Below are positions 2,638 to 31,174 of a stretch of 64,000 nucleotides of DNA, piece by piece. The DNA is from a virus, in IMG/VR virus record IMGVR_UViG_3300028608_000012, positions 13,792 through 77,791 of that record; one strand, given 5' to 3'. The notes under the pieces are model-generated. The model did no database searches, was not told where the DNA came from, and worked only from the letters and a program-made list of their open reading frames with translations. The position numbers and the translations under genes are program-made. Numbering within the stretch: position 1 is the stretch's first letter; the number at the start of each line of letters is the position of its first letter.

Positions 2638-3984
2638 TTATTCTTCCACTACGCCGTCAGTCAGCATTTGATACTTCGTCAGCACCAGGATTTTAACCTT
2701 ACCAACACGCTTTGCAACGTAGGTCTGGCCGAAGCGTTCAACACGGGTGATACCTTGAGGCGGCAGGCTGATAGGGGTTACCGTTTCAGCAGCAGCCAAC
2801 AGACCTTCCATCTCACGGACGAACTCCATGGTCACACCATTCATCAGATCGAAATCCGTGTCGAGTGGCGAGATCAGGGAATAGTCAGGGAACAACGCCG
2901 TGATCTTTTCCATGCCTTCACGGTTGTTCAGCTTAGCCACAAAGGCACAGTTGAGCGACTTGTAAAGGAAGGGAACTTCCTGCATCGATTTTATGACGTG
3001 TGCCGGCGTCATGTTCGGTGTTAGGTAGCGGTCAACCAGCGCCATCATGGTTTCACGATCGGTGATTGGCGAGTACTGCTTAGCGCCGTTGGTCTTGTTT
3101 GTCAGGCCATAGCGGTCGAAGTTCGGGATGACGTAGAACTCGAGCGGGTTGAACAGGTCTGGGATCTTCTCTTCCCAACGCGGTCGACCGAACTCGGAGT
3201 TGTCGAGGATTTCTTGTTGCAGTTGATCGAACAGCTGATCTTCCGCATCCTGACCGTTACCCCACCAGATGAAGGTCCAGCTACCGATGTTTACATTCGG
3301 GGTGTTGATGAGGTCCACGATTGGGAACTCAAGAACATCACGGTCGGTATAGGGCCATGCACTTTGGTTGTTCAGGGTCTTCAGGCGATCTTCGATAACC
3401 TTCGGAGTTTCCAGCGCCAGCCGAGCAGCAATCTGCTGGTAGTTGGCGTTCATCAGGAAATCCATTTCCCCTAAAGGAAGCGGATGTACTGCGGTGAACT
3501 TCACACGTGGAAACTGATCCTGGAAGTAGGCGTCAGCAAACCAGAGGTAGAACTCTTGTTTCTCGCCACCAGCTACAATGTGATTACCGTGCACAAAGCT
3601 CGGGAGCCAGATCGCATTGTTGGTTGCCATTTCGCCGATGTCGGTAATTTCGATATCGTTCGAGAAGTTGGCTTGCAACAGGGCCAGTGTGTTGGGACGG
3701 CTGCTGGTGATGTTACCGAGTTTGGCTTGGGCATAAAGCCAGTCACCCATGCCAATTTGGCGTAAGGCAATTGTGGTCGACATCTTGACTTCGACGTTAT
3801 CCGTAGTCGTCAGGAAGTTAACCAGTTCGGTAACTGTAGCACCGTCTGTTTTTGTAAAGGTCCCAGGGTCACGTTGGTAACTTCTGGATTTATTAGAAAG
3901 CTCTCCCAAAGGAGCGGCATTCTCTGGATTGTTGTTATAAAGTGGTGATATACTACCGAAAGACAAATACCTTGTAACGCTCAT
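2638..3984 (-). CDS. Putative virion structural protein (phiKZ gp157-like by position)
   Basis: ~448-aa ORF; RBS before ATG 3984; position near the RNase H-like gene. Confidence 0.65.
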   Translation of the reverse strand: MSVTRYLSFGSISPLYNNNPENAAPLGELSNKSRSYQRDPGTFTKTDGATVTELVNFLTTTDNVEVKMSTTIALRQIGMGDWLYAQAKLGNITSSRPNTLALLQANFSNDIEITDIGEMATNNAIWLPSFVHGNHIVAGGEKQEFYLWFADAYFQDQFPRVKFTAVHPLPLGEMDFLMNANYQQIAARLALETPKVIEDRLKTLNNQSAWPYTDRDVLEFPIVDLINTPNVNIGSWTFIWWGNGQDAEDQLFDQLQQEILDNSEFGRPRWEEKIPDLFNPLEFYVIPNFDRYGLTNKTNGAKQYSPITDRETMMALVDRYLTPNMTPAHVIKSMQEVPFLYKSLNCAFVAKLNNREGMEKITALFPDYSLISPLDTDFDLMNGVTMEFVREMEGLLAAAETVTPISLPPQGITRVERFGQTYVAKRVGKVKILVLTKYQMLTDGVVEE

Positions 3985-4014
3985 AACTCTCACCTCTTCA
4001 GTAAGGATGGTCCC

Positions 4015-4467
4015 ATGTTAGCGGTCTTTAGAGAGCTAACCAACAGATCTATAGAATTTGTCCTCTCGTTGACAAAGGGTGAAACGCTTGAAGAGCAATT
4101 GACGTCTGCCTTAAAGACTCTGATCTTCGGGATAACAGTCCTTATGTTTGTGGTGACCAGTCTTGCGATTGCGAACTTCAACATGCGTACTGAACTCGTG
4201 GACATGGAGTCGGGGATATCTAAAGTAAACCTTTTGTTCGATGGGGATAACGGCGGACCTATCAAAGGGTTCATCAGAATCAACGACATGCTGGCAGGTC
4301 AGAACGTGGCCTTAAAGCAAGAAAACATCCTGTTCCTCAAGACCAACACTCGTCTGTTTGAGCAAAACCATTGGTTGCGTTTGCAGTTGCTCCAAACGCT
4401 CGACGAGAACGAAATCTTGCGTAAAAACAACAAAGCGCTGATTGATCTCGTCCCTCGTAAACGGTGA
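4015..4467 (+). CDS. Membrane-anchored coiled-coil protein (150 aa)
   Basis: Hydrophobic segment LIFGITVLMFVVTSLAIA followed by a heptad-rich region; AAGGA RBS. Confidence 0.7.
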   Translation: MLAVFRELTNRSIEFVLSLTKGETLEEQLTSALKTLIFGITVLMFVVTSLAIANFNMRTELVDMESGISKVNLLFDGDNGGPIKGFIRINDMLAGQNVALKQENILFLKTNTRLFEQNHWLRLQLLQTLDENEILRKNNKALIDLVPRKR

Positions 4468-4527
4468 TATGTTTCTTCACCCTGGAACCCATTAATGTGT
4501 AACTACACCTCTTAAGGGCACATCACA

Positions 4528-6045
4528 ATGGACGAAATCATTCCGACGGTAAACATGGTCGTTTATCTCATCGCTAATGCCTTAGAACCCAAGGAAGGAC
4601 GTCGTAAACATCATTACTACTTGGGTGGCCATGGTTATACTTATGATGTCAAGGAAGAAGGCAAAAAGAAACTGGCCAAAGACGTAGCCACCTCAACCGG
4701 CTATTACACCGGCAACAAACAAAAACCAAACACGGTCGTGGTGGTACAGGATATCGTTAGTCTGACAGTGCCTAATGCGCACAGTTTGATTGACAGCTTG
4801 ATGAAGGGATTCTTGGAGGTTCTTAAAGTAGCAAACGAACGTGGTCAAAAGAACCTGTGGATCATCACTCCCCACAAGGAACTGGAAGCCATCAGTAAGC
4901 TGCAAGAGCCCGCTTGGAAAGTTGTATCGGGTCAAGATGTGAAAGTAGGTAAACACATCCTGACTCCGGAAGAAGTAAAGACTGGTTTGGAAATCTATCA
5001 ACAGCTGGAGATTCTTAGAGCCAACAAGGAACGTAAGTTGTTCTTTGATCTTCCAGGGGCTGCTGAAGGCGGTCTGGGTAACCGACTCGCCCACAAGCAG
5101 ATGGAAATCGCTGAGATTTCAAGTGTCTGGGGTCATGAGCAGAAGCCTGATGTTTCGGTTATGTCTCGTAAGGAATACGAGAACCCAGAGACAGATTTTA
5201 ACAAGATGGTCGATGCCACTCGTTGGTACTTCGAAACCGGTAATCGGTCGAAGTTCTACGATCTGTTGCATGGGTACCGGGTCTACAGTTTCGGTAAAGT
5301 AGAACCCGACAAGAACTACTACGGCAAAATCACTCCTGACGTCACGTACTCGAAGTTGTACAGCTTGGAACCAATCACGTTGTTGGACAAGATGTATGAG
5401 TTTACCGCGAAGAAGATTGCTAACCCAGACGGGTATCTTTCAGCGGGAACACTTAACAACCTCACGGGCAAAGACGTTGCGCGTATGCTGGACGGGATTC
5501 CTGCTGTTAAGGACAACAACGACCTGGTATCACCTGTTACCAAAGGCAATGGCAAACCGGTACTGATCGAACTGATCTCGCCTGTATTGATGTCGTATCG
5601 TATTCGTGAGTTCTTGGACACCATGGACATCGTGTTGGAATCGTTCCTTAAAAAGGACGAGAGCAATGTTTTTGGTCACACCAAGTTCTATGACATCACG
5701 GATCAGATCTTCGTTAAGGAAGCCAATACCAAGGGTGTTGTCAAGTTGAAGTTACATCCCGAGTTTAACCAACTCAAGACGGCATTCAAGATACCGGTAG
5801 AGCACCGCAATGCGGTTAAGCCCGTACCGATCATGCTGTCGATTGGTTATGACATTCCAGGGCGTAATGCGTTTAACTCGATTGATGATCCTGATGTAGA
5901 AGTGTGGGTGGCTGTTGATACCCGTAACGAGCAAGGTATGCGTTACTGCACGCTGGTGAAGACTAAGGACTTCATCTACGTGCACACTGCGGCAGGGGCA
6001 AATCTTCGTGTGTTGTCAGAAGCAGAGCTGGGTAGAAAGTCATAA
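4528..6045 (+). CDS. RNase H-like protein (phiKZ gp155 family); catalytic residues appear degenerate
   Basis: GHGYTY and GLGNRLAH motifs; position near uvsX. Confidence 0.65.
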   Translation: MDEIIPTVNMVVYLIANALEPKEGRRKHHYYLGGHGYTYDVKEEGKKKLAKDVATSTGYYTGNKQKPNTVVVVQDIVSLTVPNAHSLIDSLMKGFLEVLKVANERGQKNLWIITPHKELEAISKLQEPAWKVVSGQDVKVGKHILTPEEVKTGLEIYQQLEILRANKERKLFFDLPGAAEGGLGNRLAHKQMEIAEISSVWGHEQKPDVSVMSRKEYENPETDFNKMVDATRWYFETGNRSKFYDLLHGYRVYSFGKVEPDKNYYGKITPDVTYSKLYSLEPITLLDKMYEFTAKKIANPDGYLSAGTLNNLTGKDVARMLDGIPAVKDNNDLVSPVTKGNGKPVLIELISPVLMSYRIREFLDTMDIVLESFLKKDESNVFGHTKFYDITDQIFVKEANTKGVVKLKLHPEFNQLKTAFKIPVEHRNAVKPVPIMLSIGYDIPGRNAFNSIDDPDVEVWVAVDTRNEQGMRYCTLVKTKDFIYVHTAAGANLRVLSEAELGRKS

Positions 6046-6054
6046 GCAATTATA

Positions 6055-6090
6055 CTAACTACAGGAGCCCCGTAAGGCTCCTGTAGTTAG
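6055..6090. terminator. Bidirectional hairpin between convergent genes
   Basis: CTAACTACAGGAGCC...GGCTCCTGTAGTTAG, 15-bp inverted repeat. Confidence 0.85.
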
Positions 6091-6105
6091 GTTTATGGCT
6101 GCTTG

Positions 6106-6927
6106 TTACTTCAGGTCGGCCAACGTCTTGACTTGTTCGTTGAACACCGCTGTGAGGTCGTTCAGGAGCACCAGGACTGCACCCGACAGGTTCACCAGAC
6201 CAACAAACTTGTTGACGATGGTTTCGATGTCGTCGATACCCTGTTCACCGATCACCAGTTCGTTCGACTGGATCTTGTGTACCAGCAGTTGACCGAGTTC
6301 GTAAACGTTGGTCAGCTCTTTGGCCAGCAGTTCAACGTCACGCGCCCCCAGAGTCTGCACGGTGTTGTTGAAGGTATCAACGCAGGCGAAGAACTCGTCC
6401 CAGTTGAAATACACCTGGCCGATGGAGAACTTCAGTTTACGGCTACCGCTAGGCAGTTGACGCACGAAGTTTTCGGTCTTGCTCAGTGCGGTATCGAAGT
6501 CACGAATGCTCCAGTTGAAGCTGCGGTCGATACGGCCGTTACGAATGACTTGCTTCAGCCAATCATATAGTCTCGACGCCTCGGTTTTCAAACTGCACAC
6601 GATGTAGATGCCATCGGTTACAGCTTTGGTGTGTGCCATCATGTTACCCATGCCAGCTGCGAAGCCTTCTGGGGTCAGGATTTCAACACCGGTGTTCTTA
6701 ACGTACAACACTTTGTTGCCGACGAGGTTGTGTTTTGCAGCTGAGGCATCCACTTTGTGGATAGAGCGGCTCAGCACCGCCATGCGGCTGTCGATCGAGG
6801 TAGTGAACTCTTTAAAGAACAGCTTAAAGTTTTCACCGATGCTCAGAGCTTCGAAGCCCTGAACAGTAAATGGCTCTGGCTTTTGGACCAGTGCCAGGTA
6901 GTTTGGAGTATCGGTAGATTGTTCCAT
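6106..6927 (-). CDS. Putative virion head protein (phiKZ gp153-like by position)
   Basis: Likely start ATG 6927 with GAGG; G-F-E|A motif near the N-terminus resembles a prohead-protease site. Confidence 0.65.
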   Translation of the reverse strand: MEQSTDTPNYLALVQKPEPFTVQGFEALSIGENFKLFFKEFTTSIDSRMAVLSRSIHKVDASAAKHNLVGNKVLYVKNTGVEILTPEGFAAGMGNMMAHTKAVTDGIYIVCSLKTEASRLYDWLKQVIRNGRIDRSFNWSIRDFDTALSKTENFVRQLPSGSRKLKFSIGQVYFNWDEFFACVDTFNNTVQTLGARDVELLAKELTNVYELGQLLVHKIQSNELVIGEQGIDDIETIVNKFVGLVNLSGAVLVLLNDLTAVFNEQVKTLADLK

Positions 6928-10869: not shown

Positions 10870-11412
10870 TTAAACGGGGTTACCATCTATGTCGACCAAA
10901 GAGTTACCCTGTACGAGTTCTTCTGGCTTGATCGGGGCGATGTCTTTGGCAGCATCCAGCAGGGACTTATTAGGGTCCAGCAAGAACCGCGTCATGTCGA
11001 ATACCGGCAGAGATACCGCACCACTGCTGATGGTCTTCATAGCTTCCAGCATTTCGTTGAAAGCCAGTACGTTGGTTTCGCCTTCTTTCTTTTTGGCTTT
11101 TTCCTTACGGTTATCCCGTACGGTTTTTTCCATGTGCCCGATCAGTGAGCTGACACCTTCCAGAAGAGATGCACTGGACGGCTTAGCCAAATACTGCTGC
11201 ATCGCGTAGTTCAACAGCAGGGCCCGGTTTTGCTGGATCGCTTCTACCAGTTTATTCTGGTCTTCGTCTTCCAGGTCCAGGACCAACGCCTTGCGCAATG
11301 CTTGCATCGCTGCGGCGGCTTCTTCATCCTCGGTCCGGTGCTTCTTATCCAGATCCGAGAGCTTGTCTGCGAATGGGGAAAGCTCTTTTACTGGCTGTTC
11401 GGTAGTGTCCAT
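10870..11412 (-). CDS. Hypothetical protein (180 aa)
   Basis: Helical ORF ending near the hairpin. Confidence 0.7.
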   Translation of the reverse strand: MDTTEQPVKELSPFADKLSDLDKKHRTEDEEAAAAMQALRKALVLDLEDEDQNKLVEAIQQNRALLLNYAMQQYLAKPSSASLLEGVSSLIGHMEKTVRDNRKEKAKKKEGETNVLAFNEMLEAMKTISSGAVSLPVFDMTRFLLDPNKSLLDAAKDIAPIKPEELVQGNSLVDIDGNPV

Positions 11413-13743: not shown

Positions 13744-15918
13744 TTATCGGGCCATCGGTCTTACAAAGATGCGTGCCAGGTCGCCCACGATCGAATCGTT
13801 CACCTTGGCTGCAATGTTGTCAGCCCGGATACTTTGTTTCATGTCGAGGACAATGCCTGTCAGGTTACGGTTGAGACGTGCGTACTTCATCACGGTGTCG
13901 AGGTAGTCAACACCGGTCAAACGAGACAGGTAGTTGTTGTAAGCCGTATCGTCGTTGAACAAACGGTTCGCTACCTGAGACGGGTTGGTGGCATCCAGCA
14001 AGCTGATAGAGCGGTCAACTGGAACGGTGATCAACGGCTCAAGGTCAACGATGGTGAAGTCGATCTTGATGTTCAGTGGCTTACGATCCAGAGTCCAACC
14101 ACCGTCACCCGAACCAATGGTAAAGCTCAGGCTTTCCATCATGCCAGTACGAATGATCGAACGGGACTTACAGAAAGCTTTCAGCATGAACGGCGAGGTG
14201 TAGGTCGAACCACCCGCAGAGTTCGGAGCCACCATCGGCAGGAACAACGCCAGCAATACCCAGATCTTCATGATCTGTTCGTAAGGGTGGGCGTAGTTAC
14301 AGTTGGACGAGATCGAGTAGTTCTCCTTATGCAGGTTAGTCGTCGAACCGTCCCAGTGGTCAGCGATCTTCACGTAGCTGTTGTTCACCAGCGCCAGCGG
14401 GATGTTACCGATCACAGTACCAGACAGAGCACCGATTGCACCGTCTTTAAGGGTGTTCACAACGGTGTCGATGATACCGATACCCGTTGCACCACCAGCC
14501 ACGTCAAAGCGGAAGTCGTTCGCTGCCTTAACCACCGAGTTGAACTTCTCAGCCATAGGGGACGGAGAATGGCTGTTGGAGAAGCTGTCCGTTACAGGAC
14601 CCACGCCGCCATCAACACGGAAGGTGATTGCATCGAGACCGCCAGAGAACGCTGTCTGCACCAAGTCGGCTACGTCGCCTGCCCAGGTACGGTCGTTAGG
14701 GTTGTCTTCATACGAGATGGTTTGCCCACTCGCAATGGCCTCGTTACCCCCGGTGTATGACGAAGCAGGTTGTGGACGGGTAGAACTCTGGTTAGGGTTG
14801 ATCCCCGGCGTAGCACCCGGCGCACCTTGGCTGGAGTTCTCCATCCCAGTGCTTGAACCCGCAGTAGCACCAGTACCAGCACCGCCACCACTTAGATCGT
14901 CGACCTGTTCCTTAAAGCCGTTGTTGACGTTCTTGTAGGCTGATTCGTTGGCATACGCACTGTCCTGCTCAACAAACTTACCTTCATCCTCACCACGGTA
15001 CTTACTGACCGAGTTCATTTCCTTCTCAATAAACTCTTGAGTTGGATCACCTGCCCAAACAGTGTCATCGAAAGTAACTTCTTCCATGAGCTGTTGAGCG
15101 CGGTCGAACTTCTGGTCCGGTGTGGTCAGCGCCTCGTTATCCATCGCTGCCAGTTTATTCAACATGACACGGTGTTTACGAGTACCCTTCATGATCAACC
15201 GCATTAGGTCGATCGTGCCGTCGGCGTTGATAACGTCAGGCATCAGCAGGCTCATGTCCGCCACAGCCTTGCTGTTATCGTAATCAGGCTTACGGCCGTA
15301 CAGACCGTCAGTTTGTTCCTGGGTACGCTTAGGCAACACTGGATCGATGTAACCCAGCTTAACCATGAGGTCGTTGAGGATACCCGTGGCCGCCATGGTG
15401 TACGCACCCATCGCTGGCTTACAAGTCCAGAAGTTGTTCTTCGGTGCATCCGTCAGGAACGACAGGAACTGAATGCCGATGCTGATCAACTGCATAGGCC
15501 AGAAGGCAATAGCGGTAGCCGCCTGTCCCATGTAGAACGCCAATCCAGGAGCACGACCTTTGTTAGCAATGATCGCAGCAGAAGGGCTGAACATGTTGGT
15601 AATGAAACTGAGCAAACCAGCAAACTGCGGAACGCTCGGTGTCAGGGTCAATAGGGTAACGTTGTTTTCGTATACCTCTTTGTACATGCTTCCCATACCA
15701 CCCTCAGACGAATTCAAGAATCGACTGTAACGAGGGTCGGTGGCTGGGCTGCTTTGGGGAATAGGGTTAACGTAGCGGTTATCACCTGTTGCGCTGCTAA
15801 ACACGTTGAAGTAACGATCCCAGTCCATTTGCTGTAACAGGTCGCTGGGTTGGACACCACGTGTAAGCAAACGAAACGACTTGGTGATAATGTCGCGATC
15901 TCGAACACTTACGGTCAT
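13744..15918 (-). CDS. Virion tail/baseplate-associated protein (phiKZ gp182-like, 724 aa)
   Basis: Directly downstream of the giant tail protein gene; size and position. Confidence 0.7.
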   Translation of the reverse strand: MTVSVRDRDIITKSFRLLTRGVQPSDLLQQMDWDRYFNVFSSATGDNRYVNPIPQSSPATDPRYSRFLNSSEGGMGSMYKEVYENNVTLLTLTPSVPQFAGLLSFITNMFSPSAAIIANKGRAPGLAFYMGQAATAIAFWPMQLISIGIQFLSFLTDAPKNNFWTCKPAMGAYTMAATGILNDLMVKLGYIDPVLPKRTQEQTDGLYGRKPDYDNSKAVADMSLLMPDVINADGTIDLMRLIMKGTRKHRVMLNKLAAMDNEALTTPDQKFDRAQQLMEEVTFDDTVWAGDPTQEFIEKEMNSVSKYRGEDEGKFVEQDSAYANESAYKNVNNGFKEQVDDLSGGGAGTGATAGSSTGMENSSQGAPGATPGINPNQSSTRPQPASSYTGGNEAIASGQTISYEDNPNDRTWAGDVADLVQTAFSGGLDAITFRVDGGVGPVTDSFSNSHSPSPMAEKFNSVVKAANDFRFDVAGGATGIGIIDTVVNTLKDGAIGALSGTVIGNIPLALVNNSYVKIADHWDGSTTNLHKENYSISSNCNYAHPYEQIMKIWVLLALFLPMVAPNSAGGSTYTSPFMLKAFCKSRSIIRTGMMESLSFTIGSGDGGWTLDRKPLNIKIDFTIVDLEPLITVPVDRSISLLDATNPSQVANRLFNDDTAYNNYLSRLTGVDYLDTVMKYARLNRNLTGIVLDMKQSIRADNIAAKVNDSIVGDLARIFVRPMAR

Positions 15919-15982: not shown

Positions 15983-18900
15983 TCAGATGTTTACGCTGTT
16001 AGGCGCAGGCTCTGAGTTCTTAGCCATCTTCTCTAGGAGAGCATGGATACCCGCCAACAGTTGGTTCGTGTCGCTCTGCTTACTCACACCCTCCTCCGTA
16101 GTGGTGGTGAGTTTCGCCATCAAGCCACCCGGATCGGCAGGTTTCTCCGCTTCCGGAACTTGTACACGAGGTACTGGCTTGTATGGTTCAGGCGCCAGCT
16201 GGGCACTTGGCTGTGGAACAGCGCTAGGGCCAGCAACAGGACCTTGTGGGTTAGCAGTTGGACCACCTGGTTGTCCAGGCAATGGCAGGGAAGTATAAGG
16301 TCCAGGGATTGCCCCTCCACCTGCTCCCGGCGCAACTTGAGCACCCCCGCCTTCTGCTGGGGCGTTGCTTTTCATTGCTGGTGTTGGAACGGTCGTTGTA
16401 TCTGGCGGAGCAGAAGGCATCTGACCTGGATCGTACTGCTGATCCTTTTCAGTTACCGTACCACCCGCTGTTGTGTCCTGACCGGCTGGTTGTTCAGCAC
16501 CAGACGCTTGTGCGAACTTATCCGCTGCTTCCTTGGTCTTGAAGCCCACATGCACGTGACCGCCAGTAGCACCAGCCGAAGCCTTAGCGTACTCGTCGAT
16601 CAGAAGGAACTCACTAGGCGCCATGTTGGCCGACCGCAGAATCCCCATCACGACAGCCATCCCCACCCTGGCACCGGCCGCGCCGTTGGTCAGAGTAAAG
16701 TCTAGCGCCAGCCCTTGAGCATGCTTGGAGTTGGGCTTCTTGTTTTTGTGGAACGCGTCGTTCAACGCAGAGAAGTAACGGAAGTTAGGGCACTTACTCT
16801 GGATCAGTTGAGCCAGACGGATAATACCAGGGTGAGCGTTACCGCCCGCAATGGCCTCTCCTGACTTCAACCGCAAGCCACTCGAGTTAATACCTGCCCC
16901 GCCACCTACCAGAGAACCAGGTTCACTAGGAGCCTCGTTACCGTAGTTGCCACTGTAATCTCCGCCACCGCCACCGGGAGCCATCAGACTTGGAGGAGTC
17001 CCGTAGGAACCACCGCCGCCGCCGCTAGCAGCACCGGCTGCGTTACGCGAACCGCCGCCTGGAGCCACACCGATCGGCGGAGTAGTACCGCCACCAATGG
17101 TTGGACCAGCAGGAGCACCATACATACCACCAGCACCCTGAGAAGGCGCAGCATTGGTACCCTGTGCAGCAGCATCATCCGCTTTCAACTGACCGCTTTG
17201 CAATTGCTTCAAGTAGTCAGTGTAGAGCTGGAAGCGCTTAGGCATCCCCGGCAGTTCGTTACCACCATTCAAGCCAGTGGCTGCACGACCGAAGTTACCG
17301 TCCTGCGTGATGCTTTGCAGCAGCTTGCTGTTTTTGTAGAAGTTAACCGCAATAGCAGCCATGACGTTTGGATCGTTAGACGCCAGCTCTGGATTGTTCA
17401 CCAGGTCAATGCCCAGTTGTTGTCCAATGCGAGCGTACATTGACCGACCCGTCAGTTGTACCAAGCCACGACCGCGATACTTCCACCCATCTCCCGGTGC
17501 CACGTTACCGATCGACTGCCCCTTACCGCCACCGTAAACAGTGTTGGCGATAGCTACGGGACCTGCCGCGATAAGCGCACGCGCCTGTGGCAGGCTGGTA
17601 ACTTCCCTGAACGTCTTCACCAGGTTTTCAGGTGTGGAGTAGTTCATGTTCTCTACGGTACGGCTGTAACCGCCGGTCTCGTAGTTGGTAAGTGCCAACA
17701 TCTCAGCAATCGCACGAGGATCCGTAAACCCTTGTTTCAACATCTCGCGAATGATGAGCTGCTCTGCCAACGACTTAGGTACCTTAACCCCGTTGTCCTT
17801 CCCGTCGGCTTGTTGCACACCACTGAGGTCCAGGTGACTGGTGTCGCTGTCGCCTGTTAGCGGTGCATAGCCGTAGGAGTTGCCAGGGGTCTGATAAGTA
17901 CCGCCAAGCCCAAAGGTGTTGCCCGTACCAGAACCACGGCCGGTACTCGTACCAAACTGTCCACCGAGCGCAACGTCACGGCTGGTTTTAGCCTTGCTCA
18001 CGTCATCGACGTTTGCCCGTTTCGTTGTAAAGTCACCACCCGTCTTGTGAGGGGAGATGGTCGTAGCCCAAGCTTGAGTGTTGGTTTTACCGGCTTCCTT
18101 CTCTGGATCCTTCAGCTTAGCCGTTGTACTGGCTTCCCCGAGCACAGCCAGCATCCGGTCTACCCGGTCTGGTTTACCTGGAGATACCGAGTCCTTAAAC
18201 GGCGCAGCCCTGACTACCCAGATCGGCACCAGCGTCGATTTATTGATCTCGACCTTAGTCTCTACCAGCCCACGAGCGATTTCATACCGAGCAGTTACCG
18301 ACAGCGTACGCCACACCACCCCAGGGTTACCACGGCGGTAGTTTTGTACCAGGTTGAAGTAGTTGATGAGGACTGGCATGAAACGGTCTTTAAACCACTT
18401 ACACCAGTTGTCCGCATCTCCTGCATCCAGACGGAAGGCTTCCTTGAACAGGCCAAACACATCACCGACTTGACCGTTGAACTTAGCACCCCCTTCACCG
18501 ATGGTCATCAGGGATTCGCAGTAGCGTTCCAGTCTCAGAACGGCATCCACACGCCAGGTCATATCCAGGTCGTTACCGTAGCACGCCAAACGAATACCAG
18601 TGAGCATATCCACCGGACGGTCGTCAGGCAGCAAGTCCTTAATAAAGACCTGCGACGCCACCACACCTACCTTGTAGTTGCTGTTCAACTGCGCCAGCTG
18701 GCTATTCACCTCATTCAGACGAGTTTGTGCTTTGATTACAGTCTGCAACTTTTCATTGCTATCAAAGAACCCACGAGGTGCGTCTACCTGCGCTTGCAAC
18801 GCAGACTGTTCCTTCTTCAGCGCATCCACACCTACAGGCATAGCCACCGGTGCATTTTCAGCCACGCCATCGGTTTTACGGTCGATGTACTTCTTCAGCT

Positions 18901-24043: not shown

Positions 24044-25660
24044 ATGAAACCCACAAACCTAACGTTACTGGACTTTAACAAAATCGCACCGCCTGTGTTC
24101 AAGCCGGTAACGTCCACTGACGCGTTTGAAGGCATGACCCAAAACCTCAATGATGAGGGCCTGTATTCGCTGGAAATCTTTGGCAAGCTGGGTAGCAAGG
24201 AGCGCGACGAAACCGAAGCGTACATTGACACCAAATTAGAAATTTTCAACCCAACTTACTTTAAAGCGATGATTCAAACAAAGTCGCTTTACCTCGGAAT
24301 TCTCAAAGGCACGGAATACGCCACCTGGGACCCACAGGCCAAAGATTTCATAAAATCCAACCTCCTCGAAGGTGAGACAGGTTTCAGTTTCTTTGTAAGC
24401 CATTTCAAGGAACTGATCCCCACAATGACCGAGAGTTACAAGCGCAAACAAAAGGTTGAAATGGTTAAACGTTTCAAACCGATTGCCTTGGCAGCTAAGG
24501 TCTTGGTTCCTCCTGCGGGTCTGCGAGACATCGAGTTCCAACCGGATGGCACTGTAGTAGAGCCAGAGATTACCGACTTCTACCGCAAGCTGCTGTTCCG
24601 TACTCGAGTGGTTTCGCTGGGTAGCAAGGAGGATGGCGAGAACCCACTGTACGATACCGTGCGTTGGGGTCTGCAAAGTTCTTACAACGACATCGACCAG
24701 TACATCTTTGATCTCATGGATGGCAAGTCGGGTCTGTTCCAGCGTCGCGTATCGACTCGTGGTGTAGTGTCGGGTACACGTAACGTTATTACCGCACGTA
24801 AGGTCTCCAGAGAGCATTTGCACAGAGGGAACGGGGTAAGCCCCAACTCGGTGGATATGGGTCTCTATCAGGCGCTGCTGAACTTCCAGTACGTCTGCAT
24901 TCACGCATTGCTCACCAAGTACCTGGGCACTATCTTCAGTCCAGGATCCCAAAACGTCAAATTGGTCAATACCAAGTCACTGGAGTATGAATATGTTGAG
25001 GTCTCAGCAGCCGTTGTCGAGAAGTGGTCAACGGCCACAGGCATCTCCAAACTCTTCAACGGTTTTGGAAACGCGCGTCTTCGCTCAAAACCCATCGTCC
25101 TTTCGGGCCACTATCTGGCGCTGGTGTACGACGACGGTAGCGATGTTTGTGTCCTGAGTGATATCAACGATTTGCCAGCCGGTAAAGACCGTAAACTGGT
25201 GACTCCGATTACCTACATGCAACTCTACTACCTCTCCTGCCACAAGGTTATTGGTGATCAGGTCTCCCAGCAGACTCGTTACCCGGTAATTGGTATCGGC
25301 TCGATCTTCCCTGCCAAGGTTAACCTCTTGAGCATTGAAGGTGCCAAGCCGCGTACCATTCGTGACACTGAGTGGGAAGTGGTTGAGCAGTGCATGCGTT
25401 ATCCTCACAACGTTGACCACCCTGACTACTTCGACGCAATGTCGGTAGACCCTAGCCGTGAAGCGGGTCTCGATTCCGACCACGACGGTGACATGCTCAA
25501 CAGTAACAGCGTGTGTGCCGAAGACAGTAAGGCTCAGGTCAACGACCTGTTCGGTAAACGCGAGTACTACATCAGCGGCAGCGGTCGGTTCCTCTACGAC
25601 CCTGTGAACGAACCCATCTTGTTTATGCTTAAAGCCGCCACCAGCGGTATGGAGGAATAA
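24044..25660 (+). CDS. Virion RNA polymerase beta' subunit, catalytic fragment (phiKZ gp180-like)
   Basis: GLYSLEIFG, VPPAGLRD, GTRNVIT, TRYPV and the metal-binding DSDHDGD motif. Confidence 0.9.
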   Translation: MKPTNLTLLDFNKIAPPVFKPVTSTDAFEGMTQNLNDEGLYSLEIFGKLGSKERDETEAYIDTKLEIFNPTYFKAMIQTKSLYLGILKGTEYATWDPQAKDFIKSNLLEGETGFSFFVSHFKELIPTMTESYKRKQKVEMVKRFKPIALAAKVLVPPAGLRDIEFQPDGTVVEPEITDFYRKLLFRTRVVSLGSKEDGENPLYDTVRWGLQSSYNDIDQYIFDLMDGKSGLFQRRVSTRGVVSGTRNVITARKVSREHLHRGNGVSPNSVDMGLYQALLNFQYVCIHALLTKYLGTIFSPGSQNVKLVNTKSLEYEYVEVSAAVVEKWSTATGISKLFNGFGNARLRSKPIVLSGHYLALVYDDGSDVCVLSDINDLPAGKDRKLVTPITYMQLYYLSCHKVIGDQVSQQTRYPVIGIGSIFPAKVNLLSIEGAKPRTIRDTEWEVVEQCMRYPHNVDHPDYFDAMSVDPSREAGLDSDHDGDMLNSNSVCAEDSKAQVNDLFGKREYYISGSGRFLYDPVNEPILFMLKAATSGMEE

Positions 25661-25664
25661 AGGT

Positions 25665-28600
25665 ATGAATCTCCCACCGGCGATTACATTCAGTGCTCTG
25701 GATGCTGTGACCGGGGACGAAGCGCTGTACCCCCAGTTTTACCGCGCCTTTGTTCAGCGTAAGCGTCAAGAGTTGATCGCCCCTGTCTTTATCGGGATTG
25801 GCGAGATTATCTTGCCACGTGCCTCGCTTGTTCACTTCTTCCCCAGCAACCCACAAGAGATCGGTCCTTCCGTCTCTGAAGCCTTTATCAGTAACTACCC
25901 TGATGAGGTGTTTGTTGAGTTCCCCGCTAAATACACTCCGGTGATTGGTAACGGTCGTGCTGTACAGATCGAACCCCGCAAGATCATCCAGGGTTATCGC
26001 GGCTCGCATTACAAGTACAATTGGACCAAGGATATCAACACGGTCTACAACAAGGAGAAGGTACTGGTTGTTAAGAGCTACGGTCTTGCCGATATGCTCT
26101 GGCACCCACGTGCTTCTCTGTTCATCAACTTCGAGCGTCATTACAACCACTTCAACTTGTTGATGGAAGGTGTTAACGAAGAGGCAGTTAAAGGCAAGCG
26201 CAAGCAGTTCTTCCGTATTGACCTGCCGCTGCACATGCCGTCCTTTACCGACTTGATGGTCGACTACGATCATTACATCGATAGCTTCCGGGATGGCTTG
26301 CCACTGCCAAGCAACAGGACTGTACGCACTACCAAGCAAGAGAACTCCTACTGGTTGATGGACTGGATGGCATTCTTGTTTGGCGACTACGAATACAGCC
26401 AGCTGAATAAGTTGTCTGCCAAGGCAATCGAAGACTTCCACCTGATCTTCGTATTCAACAGTCGTGCCCTTGTGATTCACCTGGGTACACTGAAAGGGTG
26501 GCTGGACGCTGAGATGGACCCGCGTGCAAAAGACAAGGGTAGCAGTAAGAAAAGTGAGCGTGAGAAACACGGTAAGCGCTTGAATGCGTCGAAGCGTGTC
26601 TACTTGGCCCTGATGAATCTTACCCGTGGTGGTGTCACGGAAGAGGAAGTAGTAAAAGAGGGAGAAGGAAATGGAAGAGGAGAAGAAGGAGGGGAAGAAG
26701 CCTCGGCGGCTGACCGTCTGGATGCAAAAAAGAAGGGAACTCAGAAAGGGTCGGGCACGGCATCCAGTGGATCCGGAGAAGGAACGCTTCCTGGCAAAAA
26801 TGACGGTGGGCGAACTCATGGTAATCCTGATCCTCTCCGTGATGCTTTCGGTGGTGGTAAAGGAACTGACCACGGAGATCCTGAAGGGGCCGGACAAGAG
26901 GGAGACGGAACAAATTCTGAAAGCATTGAGGACTGGACATCCCACGTAGATGACAGTTTGCTCGAGCAGGAAAAGGTTGTTGCCGAAACCTCTACCAAGA
27001 AGGACCCGTTCCCCAAGTTTGAAAGTGGCGTTAGCGCTGCTCTGGAAGAGCGAGCACGTGAAGGCCAGCTGACAGTTGCTGAACAGCAGTTCTTCATGCG
27101 TAAGGCAACCCAGGTTTATCACATCGAAATGGAAAACGGTCAGAGTTTGGCTGAATACATGGAGATCAAGCCTGACGAGCTGAAGACACTTACAGCCGAC
27201 GCCAAGATCGAGGGTACCTTTCCTACGATCCTGGACGAGTCGATGCTCCAGAGCCGCGCCAAGGTCTTGAAGCAGGGTTATGTCGACAAGTTCCTGCACA
27301 AAGACATGGCCGCCATGGCTGTGGCTGTTCAGAATGCCGGGTTTGCCCTCAACGACTATCGTCACGAGGTGCTTAATGGTGTTGAGGGTTCCTACGACGT
27401 TATTACCATTCAGGTTCATCCTGTTGACGGCGAGCAGTCCACTCATGCGATTCGTTTCCCACGGGTTAGCAACGACGATGCTTCCTTTACCGTTGATGGT
27501 GTGAAGTCTCACCTGCAACTGCAACGCATGGAGCTACCGATTCGCAAGATCGATTCGGGCACTGTGCTGTTGACCAGTCACTACGACCGCCAGTTGATGG
27601 TGACTCGTAGCAAGAAGGTGGTCGACGACCTGGGCGTGTGGCTGAAGAAACAGATCCTGCTGAAAGCCATGAGTGACAAGAGCATCACGTTGAGTCGTGG
27701 TAATGGCCGTAACCGTGACTACACTGGTCCACGGATCTACACCATTCTTGCCAGTCGCTTCCAGTGGATCAATGTGGGCGGCTACATGTTGGACTTCCGC
27801 ATCGAGAAGCTGTTGGAAGACCATCCTGAGTTCAAGAAGTTTACCAAGCCAGAAATGTTCTTGGTGGGTGTCAAGGACAAGAAGCCAATCACCATCGACA
27901 GCTACGGCAACCTCTACCTGGACGGTGTTGAGTTTAACACCTTTGAAGGGCTGATGGGGATCAACACCGCTAAAGCGCCTAACGAACATGCCGTGGTTAA
28001 CATCAGTGGCTATCTGTTCCCGTTGGGTGTTGTGCTGTGTTACTACTTCGGGATTGATGAACTGCTGAAGGTCATCAAGGCTACCACCCGGGCAGTCCCT
28101 ATGGGTACCCGCCCTAAGCTGACAGAAGACGAGTACGCCATTCAGTTCAACGACGAGTATCTGATCTTCAACCGTCGTGAGAAGCTGACCACCCTGATTT
28201 TTGGTGGCATGCCTAAGTTGAACAACATCAGTAACTTCAGCCGAAGTGACCTGAACAACAAAGGTATCTGGGGTCCTCTGATGGGTGATCCGAAGGTTCG
28301 TCCTGCTCAGTTCATTGAGATGAACCTGCTGTACAAAATGTTCATCGACCCAATCACCAAGAAGCAACTGCACCAGCTGGGTTACAGTGAGTCGTTCCAT
28401 CACTTGCTCATCGATGCAGCTAAGCTGTTGGAAACCGACTACACCCCTCATGAGGTGGAATTGGAAGAACAGCGGTTCGTGGGTTACGAGCGTTTTGCGG
28501 GTCACTTCTACAAGGTCCTGGTGGGCGCACAACGTCAGTACTTCAACAAGGGCAAGGGTCGTAAGCAGAAGCTTGAGATCAACCCTGAAGCTGTGATCAT

Positions 28601-30044
28601 GAACATCCTCAAGGACACCTCGGTTAACCGAGTCGAGGAAGTAAACCCGATCCACCAGTTGAAGGATCAAGAGGAACTGACCTTCGGTGGTACCGGTGGG
28701 CGTAGTGAGATCACAGTAGTTAAGCGGGCTCGTGTACAGCTGCCAAGCTACCGTGGCAAGATCTCTGAGGCGAACAAGGACAGCGGTAAGGTAGGCTTCG
28801 TAACCTACACTACCTCTGACCCACAGGTCCTCGACTACCGTGGCAATATCGACACCAAGAGCAAACCATCCGCTACCTCGCTGTATTCGGTGACGGGTAA
28901 CTTGGCGTTTGGTATGAACAAGGATGACACCAAGCGAGGCATGTTTACCTCGACTCAGGCGTCTCAAGCGGTCAGTGCTCAAAACTACACCATGCCGATC
29001 ACCCGTACGGGTTATGACAACGTCATTGCTCACCGGACTTCCGAACTCTACAGCAAAGTCGCTAAAGAGGCCGGTAAGGTAACGGCTGTTGAAGAGGACT
29101 ATCTGGAAATCACCTATAACGACGGCAACACTGAAAAGTATCCGTTGGGCTTGGTTATTGGTGAGGCCAGTGGTGAGTACCATCGTCACACCCGTGTTAC
29201 CGATATGAAAGTCGGCGACAAGTTTGTTAAGGGTGACATCTTGGGTTGGGACCAGCAGTGGTTTGCACGGGATCCTTTCTGCCCAGGACAAGTAGTCTGG
29301 AAGAACGGTCGTCAAGTTCGTATTGCACTAGTAGAAGACCAGGATACCTACGAGGACTCCATTGCTGTCTCGAAAGAGATCATGGGCGAATCGATTACCC
29401 CATTCCTCACGAAGAACTCTTTCGCGGTGGATGTGGATAAGGTTGTCACCTTTAAGGTTAAAAAGGGTGACCAAATCGACTACGATGCGATTTTATGCGA
29501 AATTGAAGAGGACCACCTAGCGGGGGCCGGAGCGGGGGCTAGCCAGGTTGACGAGATCAACCGTTTGGGCATTAAGCAGATCCGTTCTAAGTACCACGGC
29601 GAGGTGGTCAAGATCGAGGTGATGTACAACTCACCTGTGGAAAAGATGACTGACAGTGTGCGTAAACTTATCGCTAGTTCGGATAAAGAACGCAAACGCA
29701 TGTCCGCGATTGACGGCAGTTTTGAATCAGGTAGCGTGAGTAACAACCTCAACGTGAGTAAACCTGTTTTGTCGCCAGGCAAGGTATTGTTTACTGTATA
29801 CGTCGAATCCATGGATGGGTCTACCACCTCGGACAAATACGTTATCGGTAACCAGATGAAAGGTACAGTCAACGGTGTAATGAAGAAGCCGTTGATGACT
29901 CAAGACGGTCGAGTAGTGGACGTCAAGTGTAGCTTTAAAGGCGGCTTCAACCGCATGGTACTGAGCTTACGGGATCGACTGGGCACAAGTGAACTGTCGG
30001 TTGGGGTTACCAAACAGGCTATTGCCATTTACAGAGGTAAGTAA
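25665..30044 (+). CDS. Virion RNA polymerase beta subunit, N-terminal/main fragment (phiKZ gp178-like, 1459 aa)
   Basis: Beta motifs NPIHQLK..TFGGTGGR, DSGKVG, DDTKR...SQASQAV, YEDSI, DKYVIGNQMKG. Confidence 0.9.
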   Translation: MNLPPAITFSALDAVTGDEALYPQFYRAFVQRKRQELIAPVFIGIGEIILPRASLVHFFPSNPQEIGPSVSEAFISNYPDEVFVEFPAKYTPVIGNGRAVQIEPRKIIQGYRGSHYKYNWTKDINTVYNKEKVLVVKSYGLADMLWHPRASLFINFERHYNHFNLLMEGVNEEAVKGKRKQFFRIDLPLHMPSFTDLMVDYDHYIDSFRDGLPLPSNRTVRTTKQENSYWLMDWMAFLFGDYEYSQLNKLSAKAIEDFHLIFVFNSRALVIHLGTLKGWLDAEMDPRAKDKGSSKKSEREKHGKRLNASKRVYLALMNLTRGGVTEEEVVKEGEGNGRGEEGGEEASAADRLDAKKKGTQKGSGTASSGSGEGTLPGKNDGGRTHGNPDPLRDAFGGGKGTDHGDPEGAGQEGDGTNSESIEDWTSHVDDSLLEQEKVVAETSTKKDPFPKFESGVSAALEERAREGQLTVAEQQFFMRKATQVYHIEMENGQSLAEYMEIKPDELKTLTADAKIEGTFPTILDESMLQSRAKVLKQGYVDKFLHKDMAAMAVAVQNAGFALNDYRHEVLNGVEGSYDVITIQVHPVDGEQSTHAIRFPRVSNDDASFTVDGVKSHLQLQRMELPIRKIDSGTVLLTSHYDRQLMVTRSKKVVDDLGVWLKKQILLKAMSDKSITLSRGNGRNRDYTGPRIYTILASRFQWINVGGYMLDFRIEKLLEDHPEFKKFTKPEMFLVGVKDKKPITIDSYGNLYLDGVEFNTFEGLMGINTAKAPNEHAVVNISGYLFPLGVVLCYYFGIDELLKVIKATTRAVPMGTRPKLTEDEYAIQFNDEYLIFNRREKLTTLIFGGMPKLNNISNFSRSDLNNKGIWGPLMGDPKVRPAQFIEMNLLYKMFIDPITKKQLHQLGYSESFHHLLIDAAKLLETDYTPHEVELEEQRFVGYERFAGHFYKVLVGAQRQYFNKGKGRKQKLEINPEAVIMNILKDTSVNRVEEVNPIHQLKDQEELTFGGTGGRSEITVVKRARVQLPSYRGKISEANKDSGKVGFVTYTTSDPQVLDYRGNIDTKSKPSATSLYSVTGNLAFGMNKDDTKRGMFTSTQASQAVSAQNYTMPITRTGYDNVIAHRTSELYSKVAKEAGKVTAVEEDYLEITYNDGNTEKYPLGLVIGEASGEYHRHTRVTDMKVGDKFVKGDILGWDQQWFARDPFCPGQVVWKNGRQVRIALVEDQDTYEDSIAVSKEIMGESITPFLTKNSFAVDVDKVVTFKVKKGDQIDYDAILCEIEEDHLAGAGAGASQVDEINRLGIKQIRSKYHGEVVKIEVMYNSPVEKMTDSVRKLIASSDKERKRMSAIDGSFESGSVSNNLNVSKPVLSPGKVLFTVYVESMDGSTTSDKYVIGNQMKGTVNGVMKKPLMTQDGRVVDVKCSFKGGFNRMVLSLRDRLGTSELSVGVTKQAIAIYRGK
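26671..26949 (+). CDS. Candidate overprinted single-TM membrane protein (92 aa) in the +1 frame of the vRNAP beta gene
   Basis: GGAG-AAGGAA-ATG; basic N-terminus then LMVILILSVMLSVVV; the host frame here is a low-complexity linker with atypical codons. Confidence 0.45.
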   Translation: MEEEKKEGKKPRRLTVWMQKRRELRKGRARHPVDPEKERFLAKMTVGELMVILILSVMLSVVVKELTTEILKGPDKRETEQILKALRTGHPT

Positions 30045-30046
30045 AG

Positions 30047-30973
30047 ATGAGCTTCCAGACAGTCAACGTGGTTAAAGACATTCAAGTGGTCCTCCAAGAG
30101 GCCCATGTCTACTCCGGTGGTATTGACGGTGTCTGGGGTGCTGGTTCAGCGAATGGGGTCTTGAAGCTTCTTCAGGACTACCATTTGTTTCTGAATGGGG
30201 GGCGCTCTGTGCCCCTCCCAGTTACCTCGGGTAAAGGTTTCGATGTTGCTGTTCAAGGTATCAAGGACATCCAGAGCAACCTGAAGCTGGTGGGTATGTA
30301 CGCTGGCGCTGTCGACGGTATTCCAGGTGCTGGTAGCCTAAGTGGTTTGCGTCAGTTGGCGTTCAGTTATGCCAAGCGTAATAAGGCACCGTTCTACGAC
30401 CTGGGTTGGAGCACTCGTGTTCCGCCTGCCTTCACCATGAAGGTGCGTGACTGGTGCATCAAGCAAAACATGTTCCCCGGCGCAGCCTCTGCGTTGATGG
30501 CCTGCATGTGCTTCGAATCGGGCGGTACGTTCCGTCCTGATAAACAGAACAACGGCGGTAGCAACTACTGGGGCCTGATTCAGTTCGGTACCGCAGCAGT
30601 GATTGACCTGGCGAAGACCTTCGGGCTGAAGATCACCCTGGACGACGTCAAGGGCATGAGCCAACTGGATCAACTCGATCTGGTGTTCAAGTATTTCGAG
30701 ATGTGGCAGAAGCGCGGTAAGGCTTACAAGCGTCTTGAGGATTTCTATCTGACGATCTTCTATCCCGCTGCTGTGGGTAAAGGTCCGGACGAAGTTCTGT
30801 TCCGCAAAGATTCACCTGTCCCTATTGAAGCCAAGTCCTACCTGCAAAACAGCGGGTTCGACATTGACAAAGATGGTGACATCACCGTTGGCGAGATCTG
30901 TACCCGGCTCTACGACACGTATTACCAAGGGATGTCGGTCAAGAACCGTACCTTCAGCAACGCTCCACTTTAA
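30047..30973 (+). CDS. Modular endolysin: N-terminal peptidoglycan-binding repeats and a lysozyme-like/transglycosylase domain
   Basis: Two DGxxG repeats (GIDGVWG, AVDGIPG); catalytic FESGG...GLIQF; EF-hand-like DIDKDGDITVGE. Confidence 0.8.
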   Translation: MSFQTVNVVKDIQVVLQEAHVYSGGIDGVWGAGSANGVLKLLQDYHLFLNGGRSVPLPVTSGKGFDVAVQGIKDIQSNLKLVGMYAGAVDGIPGAGSLSGLRQLAFSYAKRNKAPFYDLGWSTRVPPAFTMKVRDWCIKQNMFPGAASALMACMCFESGGTFRPDKQNNGGSNYWGLIQFGTAAVIDLAKTFGLKITLDDVKGMSQLDQLDLVFKYFEMWQKRGKAYKRLEDFYLTIFYPAAVGKGPDEVLFRKDSPVPIEAKSYLQNSGFDIDKDGDITVGEICTRLYDTYYQGMSVKNRTFSNAPL

Positions 30974-30997: not shown

Positions 30998-31174
30998 ATG
31001 ACTGATAAAGAGCAACTCATCACCAACATTGTCACGGTCGCCAATACCGTGGAAGTGGTTAAAAAGACCCTCGCCAAAGTAGGGTTGCAATTCCTCGCAC
31101 CGCTGGGTGAGTCTGTCATGGACGAGAAGATCAGCAAAGCCATCGTTGCCCGTGTCAAAGGAGCGTCGAAATGA
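30998..31174 (+). CDS. Small 58-aa protein (MTDKEQLITNIVTV...VKGASK), absent from the ORF track
   Basis: AGGAG RBS; stop overlaps the next start (ATGA). Confidence 0.7.
   Translation: MTDKEQLITNIVTVANTVEVVKKTLAKVGLQFLAPLGESVMDEKISKAIVARVKGASK

Follow-up and report, generated by a model that had tools for sequence, protein, structure and literature searches.

A second reading frame within the virion RNA polymerase gene

The window analysed here, a stretch of 64,000 nucleotides (nt) of viral DNA (positions 13,792 to 77,791 of IMG/VR record IMGVR_UViG_3300028608_000012), carries the gene for a virion RNA polymerase (vRNAP) beta-like subunit of a jumbo phage. Judged by the comparisons with related phages described below, a second gene is very probably real within it, lying nested in the +1 frame and encoding a membrane protein. 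The features of this overlap, including an open reading frame (ORF), a Shine-Dalgarno (SD)-like site and segments of the product placed with AlphaFold2 (AF2) models, an alignment of nested proteins (A1) and a 19-residue Kyte-Doolittle score (KD19), are as follows:

25665..30044, plus strand: gene for the vRNAP beta-like subunit of a jumbo phage, 1459 aa (phrog_3148, E=0)
26628..26945, plus strand: disordered, low-complexity linker in the RNAP frame, residues 322-427 (AF2 model and drop in identity)
26661..26664, plus strand: SD-like GGAG with a 6-nt spacer to the ATG (read directly)
26671..26949, plus strand: putative nested gene in the +1 frame of the RNAP gene, 92 codons plus TAG (ORF read directly)
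26704..26745, plus strand: basic helix, residues 12-25 of the nested protein, in the predicted cytoplasmic domain (alignment A1, AF2)
26803..26859, plus strand: predicted transmembrane (TM) helix, residues 45-63, with the invariant Ser60 (KD19 2.47)
26890..26931, plus strand: C-terminal helix, residues 74-87, predicted to be periplasmic and followed by G89 (alignment A1, AF2)
26947..26949, plus strand: stop codon TAG of the putative nested gene, formed by the RNAP-frame GTA (Val) and the G of GAT (Asp) (read directly)

The original prediction had described a GGAG placed 6 nt from an ATG, a 92-aa ORF in the +1 frame, and a product with a basic N-terminal half, one hydrophobic helix and a short C-terminal tail. 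This description was borne out, with the GGAG at 26661-26664 and the ATG at 26671, an N-terminal half with a net charge of +8, a hydrophobic stretch LMVILILSVMLSVVV at residues 49-63 and a tail of 29 aa. The ORF had also been said to match the limits of a linker in the polymerase, and it indeed spans RNAP residues 336-429, compared with a linker at residues 322-427 for which AF2 gives a predicted local distance difference test (pLDDT) score of 20-27 and no secondary structure, in a model of the N-terminal part of the RNAP that was built with 13 homologues and is of low confidence overall. RNAP-frame identity is 0.35-0.38 over the linker versus 0.55-0.80 in the rest of the protein.

Codon usage is measurably compromised in both frames. 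In agreement with the expectation that GGA is otherwise rare and that T-ending codons are used in the overlap, GGA makes up 12 of the 23 Gly codons there versus 6/249 in reference genes, and all four Asn codons are AAT (21/136 in reference genes). The RNAP-frame overlap has the lowest codon adaptation among all frame-0 windows, and the nested ORF has the highest among all +1 windows; the proposal that the nested ORF uses the usual codons of the genome is upheld in this relative sense, and not when the comparison is with normal genes.

Comparative evidence for selection on the +1 frame

For comparison we used 27 IMG/VR loci with an RNAP 54-90% identical to that of the window, including 20 full-length relatives, and codons were aligned under guidance of the RNAP protein, which is conservative with respect to the +1 frame. 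Each of the 20 full-length IMG/VR relatives, and each of the 22 lineages of the clade examined, has an open +1 frame with a start codon at about the same alignment column (ATG in 20/22 lineages, GTG in L042 and OBP). In 19 of the 20 IMG/VR relatives the nested stop lies at the identical column, and the synonymous choice GTA is therefore required for that RNAP Val. The ATG, the stop and residues of the nested ORF are kept down to 40% RNAP identity, and an SD-like core is found 4-9 nt 5' of the start codon in 21/22 lineages, which is weak evidence by itself in a purine-rich region.

The pattern of variation along the RNAP gene changes within the overlap, and only there. In sliding windows, the variability at the three codon positions flips phase over RNAP residues 331-420 (48 windows), with an RNAP position-3 variability of 0.06-0.15 inside the overlap versus at least 0.18 elsewhere. 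The flip was seen separately in clade A, which consists of the window and five close relatives, and in clade B, the independent L016 group. In clade A the variable sites in the overlap at RNAP positions 1, 2 and 3 number 45, 27 and 19 of 87, compared with fractions of 0.20, 0.11 and 0.59 outside the overlap (p=1.7e-16), and in clade B they number 45, 23 and 15 (p=4.9e-22). Read in the +1 frame, the order of variability is position 3 > position 1 > position 2, the signature of a coding sequence.

Substitution rates obtained with the Nei-Gojobori method for within-clade pairs follow the same pattern. In the +1 frame the ratio of nonsynonymous to synonymous substitutions per site (dN/dS) is 0.14-0.32, with a dS of 0.40-0.90 that is near-neutral and similar to the dS in the rest of the gene. 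In the RNAP frame, dS is 0.03-0.25 in the overlap versus 0.43-0.98 in the rest of the gene, giving an apparent dN/dS of 1.0-5.7. The +1 peptide is better conserved than the RNAP peptide in 99/105 pairs, and only in the overlapping part. Judged from these substitution patterns, purifying selection acts on the +1 frame, and the comparative evidence, as read from the aligned sequences, is far beyond chance. Among the checks suggested with the original prediction were conservation of the +1 ORF, its ribosome binding site (RBS) and the TM segment in relatives (ORF open and TM segment present in 22/22, SD-like site in 21/22) and suppression of synonymous variation in the RNAP frame, as given by the dS values above; the claim that a single-pass membrane protein is encoded by a nested gene having its own RBS and ATG passed both.

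Within the otherwise unconserved linker, a short RNAP-frame motif (D/G-P/S-I/L-L/R-D-A/V/I-F) is kept throughout the clade (window, EL, RisingSun, Miami). It lies at ~26826-26850 (~s-I-L-D-v-F, RNAP residues ~388-395), beneath the C-terminal half of the nested TM helix, and this segment is therefore constrained in both frames. The motif may be a linear polymerase motif or a by-product of the other frame.

Alternative readings of the overlap

Several points weigh against a nested gene. With the RNAP protein held fixed and its codons redrawn from the gene's own usage (synonymous-codon resampling), the +1 frame of the window remained open in 93% of the trials, and the codon adaptation of the nested ORF is still under that of ordinary genes. 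The AF2 model of the nested protein is only moderate (mean pLDDT 69), and the conservation beneath the TM helix is partly shared with the RNAP-frame motif. Finally, translation is inferred from evolution only.

It is clear from the resampling that the length of the ORF by itself is not evidence for a nested gene, and the first alternative is that of an untranslated chance ORF, in which a purine-rich, T-poor linker has few stops in any frame and a hydrophobic stretch results fortuitously from its T-ending codons. Besides the high probability of an open frame given the RNAP protein, this reading can draw on the T content of the overlap (15%, versus 23% gene-wide), on chance +1 ORFs of 75-111 aa that RAY and Psa21 have in their linkers and L006 has elsewhere, and on a genome that is full of spurious antisense ORFs. 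However, the chance ORFs in the linkers of Psa21 and RAY have no TM segment and no match to a profile of the nested protein, whereas the matches to that profile (E-values from 1e-6 to 1e-21) are confined to one spot. Across 13 lineages the resampled probability of an open +1 frame is 4-78%, giving a joint probability of ~1e-7.7 for lineages that are non-independent. Neither the flip in variability in two independent clades, nor a +1-frame dN/dS well below one with depressed RNAP-frame dS, nor the retention of start, stop and residues to 40% RNAP identity is what a chance ORF would give, and we consider it very improbable.

The original prediction had itself cautioned that T-ending codons give a hydrophobic +1 frame by default. 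This was answered by a gene-wide maximum: in 8/9 lineages it is at the homologous TM site that T-ending codons are most densely clustered along the gene of ~1450 codons, and the run there is therefore itself an anomaly maintained by selection. Binomial p-values were dropped from this test, their window having been picked by hydrophobicity.

A programmed frameshift into the +1 frame, giving an N-terminal RNAP domain that is cut short and ends in a membrane anchor, has in its favour that both frames overlap on the same strand and that a heptamer A_AAA_AAG in RNAP phase is present at 26726-26732. However, slippage here would lead to the -1 (= +2) frame with its many stops, and relatives do not conserve the heptamer, which is probably accidental. 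In most lineages +1 stops are found within ~10 codons 5' of the ATG, the start codon (ATG in 20/22) and SD-like site (21/22) are kept, and conservation of the peptide starts right after the ATG, so that a frameshift is, like a chance ORF, very improbable. Least probable of all is a structured or regulatory element of the RNAP mRNA (controlling, for example, translation or decay), which would equally suppress synonymous variation in the RNAP frame, but not with a strict three-base periodicity in the +1 phase across ~270 nt, conservative amino acid replacements, and retained start and stop codons. Such an element may nevertheless exist in addition to the gene.

The predicted protein

The product of the nested gene is predicted to be a single-pass inner-membrane protein. 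In alignment A1, which was built from metagenomic relatives only, M1, W17, R21, S60, E78 and G89 are invariant, and R22 and R25 (at least 90%), L41, L49, R77 and E80 are near-invariant. Replacements are conservative, with exchanges among L/I/V/M/F along the helix and between K and R within the basic part. The AF2 model has helices at residues 12-25, 35-42, 46-71 and 74-87, the hydrophobic 19-mer falling in the single long helix at 46-71, and the mean pLDDT values of the 10-residue blocks covering residues 41-70 are 81, 94 and 83. All 22 lineages share the same layout: an N-terminal part of 31-44 aa with a net charge of +3 to +10, one hydrophobic 19-mer (best Kyte-Doolittle score 1.4-2.8), and a C-terminal tail of 25-45 aa with a net charge of -2 to +5. 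This charged tail carries the R77/E78/E80 motif in the aligned members. A topology with the N-terminus inside and the C-terminus outside (N-in/C-out) is predicted by the positive-inside rule only.

We propose that the RNAP linker tolerates almost any sequence, and that a second gene has been overprinted in its +1 frame. The virion RNAP gene is a late gene in phiKZ-type phages, and the nested gene, carried on the virion RNAP mRNA, would be expressed with that late message, presumably by independent initiation at the ATG at 26671 behind the SD-like site. The product of ~90 aa, consisting of a basic cytoplasmic N-domain of ~45 aa, one TM helix with the invariant Ser and a periplasmic C-terminal helix region of ~29 aa, would then be inserted into the membrane.

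Distribution and novelty

A profile search of complete genomes, using the profile made from alignment A1, returned exactly one significant match in each genome with a match, always inside the vRNAP beta gene: EL (5e-21), RisingSun (1e-19), Miami (7e-11), OBP (5e-7), pTD1 (2e-6) and N1M2 (4e-6). There was no match in phiKZ, Psa21 or RAY. The nested architecture is visible in the same six phages, and partly in LAh10. In LAh10 (L034), nt 956-1318 of the RNAP gene contain a +1 ORF whose start, with R-T-P-M-W and a hydrophobic helix, is similar to those of N1M2 and OBP; its C-terminal part differs and it was not detected by the profile, and LAh10 may thus have a copy that has diverged or is decaying, on the margin of the clade. 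In a quick maximum-likelihood tree of the RNAP (unrooted), one fully supported branch parts 21 carriers from 3 non-carriers, which fits either a single gain or a single loss of the nested gene.

When 1.84 billion representative proteins were searched with the profile, only six small metagenomic gene calls with the same architecture were found, plus low-complexity matches. No stand-alone homologue was seen among the metagenomic gene calls; for one call (P0007) the relative L042 could be placed, and its homologue is nested in the RNAP gene. Another of the metagenomic sequences, P0003 (a 79-aa gene call from JGI), is 63% identical to the nested protein and is labelled 'Na+/H+ antiporter NhaD/arsenite permease-like protein' in one source, which is an evident mis-naming; it shows that gene callers sometimes choose the nested frame on short contigs.

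Other searches for the nested protein were negative. A tblastn search of 50,697 phage records with the 92-aa peptide as query gave nothing at E<=0.1 (for a short, diverged peptide, with the low-complexity filter on), no family was found in Pfam or PHROG, and Foldseek of the AF2 model against BFVD gave nothing at E<=0.001. A protein-atlas comparison gave best values of 0.80-0.81 to unnamed clusters, which is uninformative. The nested gene is annotated in none of the 11 GenBank records compared, and no description of it was found in a literature search. Set against the published record, the gene family is unrecognised; overprinting of small membrane or lysis genes is, as a phenomenon, already known.

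The host gene and its neighbourhood

The RNAP protein that hosts the overlap is 55% identical to EL gp186/187 and 54% identical to RisingSun gp230, and has a weak match to the Thermus RNAP beta subunit. From EL to phiKZ-distant phages the gene order is kept, with a giant tail-lysin/fibre gene on the opposite strand, a 538-aa RNAP subunit, RNAP beta, an endolysin-type gene, a gene of ~58 aa and virion proteins. Downstream of the RNAP gene, this corresponds in the window to:

30047..30973, plus strand: endolysin-like gene, directly 3' of the RNAP gene (synteny)
30998..31174: gene for a 58-aa protein, counterpart of EL gp189 and phiKZ gp177.1

The endolysin-like gene is syntenic with the EL gp188 endolysin (EL188), the RisingSun gp231 transglycosylase and RAY gp165, and the earlier statement that the endolysin is the next gene after the RNAP gene is supported by this EL188/RisingSun synteny. 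Its product has two N-terminal repeats of the peptidoglycan-binding type and a lysozyme-like domain, with weak Pfam matches to PG_binding_1 and Phage_lysozyme2 that are under the cut-off. The 58-aa product of the next gene was considered as a holin and rejected, as it has no hydrophobic helix.

Phage EL and several EL-like phages have a vRNAP beta gene that an insertion of ~460 bp divides into two coding sequences (CDS) (2983-6186 and 6644-7717 of L028 in EL). An HNH endonuclease gene (gp185) is located just upstream of the split gene in EL, and the arrangement looks like an intron or homing element. The nested gene of EL lies within the first CDS and is undisturbed.

Long antisense ORFs lie opposite real genes in the window, and the relative L042 has one of 940 aa:

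25629..27524, minus strand: antisense ORF of 631 aa
27534..29315, minus strand: antisense ORF of 593 aa
30979..32463, minus strand: antisense ORF of 494 aa

Such ORFs arise because TTA, CTA and TCA codons are nearly absent (7/1460 codons in the RNAP gene), and were rejected as genes, being compositional artefacts.

The source record is a 77.8-kb IMG/VR fragment with an estimated completeness of 34%. The DNA of the stretch is found mainly in soil metagenomes, and also in DNA sequencing runs from wetland and food; the runs containing it are DNA metagenomes only, with no RNA run listed.

A possible role in lysis or elsewhere in the membrane

By analogy with a holin demonstrated in phiKZ, and with an endolysin gene located downstream on the same strand, we tentatively suggest a role for the nested protein in the timing of lysis, either as a class-III-type holin or as a holin partner for the downstream endolysin. 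The original prediction took it that phiKZ-like phages generally have no recognised holin; this premise is outdated, class III(B) holin activity having been demonstrated for phiKZ gp142. The gp142 protein has a cytoplasmic N-domain, a single TM domain (TMD) and a periplasmic tail of ~28 aa, and a truncation with ~14 N-terminal residues, the TMD and the tail is still functional (PMC12894885). The gp142 gene is a stand-alone gene in a spanin-holin-regulator-endolysin cassette (PMC12894885, Manohar et al. 2026). Its family, phrog_14484, is present in phiKZ and Psa21 and absent from all 11 carrier genomes tested.

Other observations speak against a lysis role. BLASTP of the nested protein against gp142 gave no similarity (E=2.1), and no holin family was found in PHROG or Pfam. 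The complementary distribution of gp142 and the nested gene represents only one or two evolutionary events, and neither is present in RAY. Between the end of the nested ORF and the start of the endolysin gene there are 3.1 kb. Since the source record is only a fragment, the complete relative G002 served for a survey of lysis genes, and it contains no fewer than six further small membrane ORFs, several of them with two TMDs, which are equally possible holins, and a spanin-like gene pair that is ~110 kb away from the endolysin gene. From the latter distance it follows that the lysis genes of this clade are dispersed.

A loose cluster of five small ORFs in G002 encodes products of 56-74 aa, each of which has either one strong hydrophobic helix or two (L066:9515-9685, 11066-11275, 14495-14695 and 16717-16941, minus strand; L065:2301-2501, minus strand). 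Four of these have no PHROG match and one belongs to phrog_16613 (unknown function), and they are alternative holin or accessory membrane-protein candidates.

A spanin-like role, which had also been raised for the nested protein, did not hold: there is no Cys or lipobox, the TM segment is in the middle of the protein (from residue ~45), the tail has only ~29 aa, and G002 has a canonical-looking spanin-like pair at another place (spanin architecture is summarised in PMC12894885). This pair consists of two overlapping plus-strand genes, L069:4169-4717 and L069:4494-5033 (G002 194169-195033), whose products are, respectively, 182 aa long, with the TMD at the N-terminus and a helical part in the periplasm, and 179 aa long, with a strong lipobox (LLMSGC); they belong to phrog_21243 and phrog_17307, PHROGs of unknown function. 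EL, RisingSun, G001 and G002 have no member of phrog_7584, the i-spanin family of phiKZ. We also considered phiKZ gp143 (phrog_2935) as a lysis partner and rejected it, as it belongs to a multi-paralogue virion-protein family with weak matches in EL and RisingSun.

Provided that the nested gene is real, a function other than lysis is on balance probable, for instance in superinfection exclusion, envelope remodelling, the membrane-bound vesicle that nucleus-forming phages use early in infection, or membrane-associated virion assembly. The lack of homology to lysis families, the distance to the endolysin gene and the other small membrane ORFs of G002, including those with two TMDs, all fit such a function, and RAY shows the same RNAP-endolysin synteny without a nested gene. 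The very basic N-terminal helix with its Trp and Arg residues could bind nucleic acid or lipid head groups. On the other hand, nothing positively indicates any one of these roles, an early function would be surprising for a gene that lies within one for a virion protein, and the size and gross topology of the nested protein match those of a demonstrated jumbo-phage holin (PMC12894885).

The stronger form of the lysis proposal, in which the nested gene is the holin or essential lysis timer of the branch containing EL, OBP, RisingSun, Miami and pTD1 and was born de novo by overprinting, is slightly more doubtful than a role in lysis timing as such. If true, it would physically tie the lysis clock to late expression of virion genes, just upstream of the endolysin.

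Implications

Overprinting is textbook knowledge for tiny phages and RNA viruses, and it is rarely documented in large double-stranded DNA (dsDNA) phages and invisible to standard gene callers. The nested gene would be a conserved membrane-protein gene under selection that was missed in a branch of the intensively studied nucleus-forming jumbo phages, a branch that includes EL, OBP, RisingSun and Miami, which are laboratory and therapy-candidate phages. With respect to lysis in this branch, the literature we found describes only an endolysin, and the nested gene is a concrete candidate for its missing holin or a lysis regulator. It would also mean that a second gene is mutated unknowingly whenever the vRNAP linker is engineered or the vRNAP gene is recoded 'synonymously'. 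In a wider sense the overlap would show, in a clean and datable case, how a gene arises de novo within a core enzyme's disordered linker, with both frames compromised in their codon usage.

Comparison with known systems

The closest functional parallel is phiKZ gp142. Both gp142 and the nested protein are small Chimalliviridae jumbo-phage proteins with one TMD, a predicted N-in/C-out topology with a helical cytoplasmic N-domain, and a tail of ~28-29 aa, and the functional truncation of gp142 is about the size of the core of the nested protein. They differ in that gp142 is encoded by a stand-alone gene in a cassette, whereas the nested protein is overprinted in an RNAP gene and has a highly basic N-domain.

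Overprinted lysis genes of small phages are well known, with phiX174 E located inside D and MS2 L extending across the coat and replicase genes. Like the nested protein, these are membrane proteins of 75-91 aa encoded in a shifted frame inside another gene, and MS2 L shares with it a basic N-terminal part and a hydrophobic domain; MS2 L has a conserved Leu-Ser, and Ser60 is here preceded by L/F/M/S. However, E and L bring about single-gene lysis in tiny genomes that have no endolysin, whereas this phage has an endolysin and its relatives have spanin-like genes, and a single-gene lysis role is therefore unlikely; furthermore, the host gene is here a core enzyme of a dsDNA phage of >200 kb.

In phage lambda, the +1 frame of Rz contains the whole of Rz1, the gene for an outer-membrane lipoprotein whose functional partner is the Rz product, whereas the nested protein has no lipobox and is encoded inside the gene of a functionally unrelated enzyme. 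What the two have in common is a same-strand, fully embedded +1 gene for an envelope protein in a tailed dsDNA phage.

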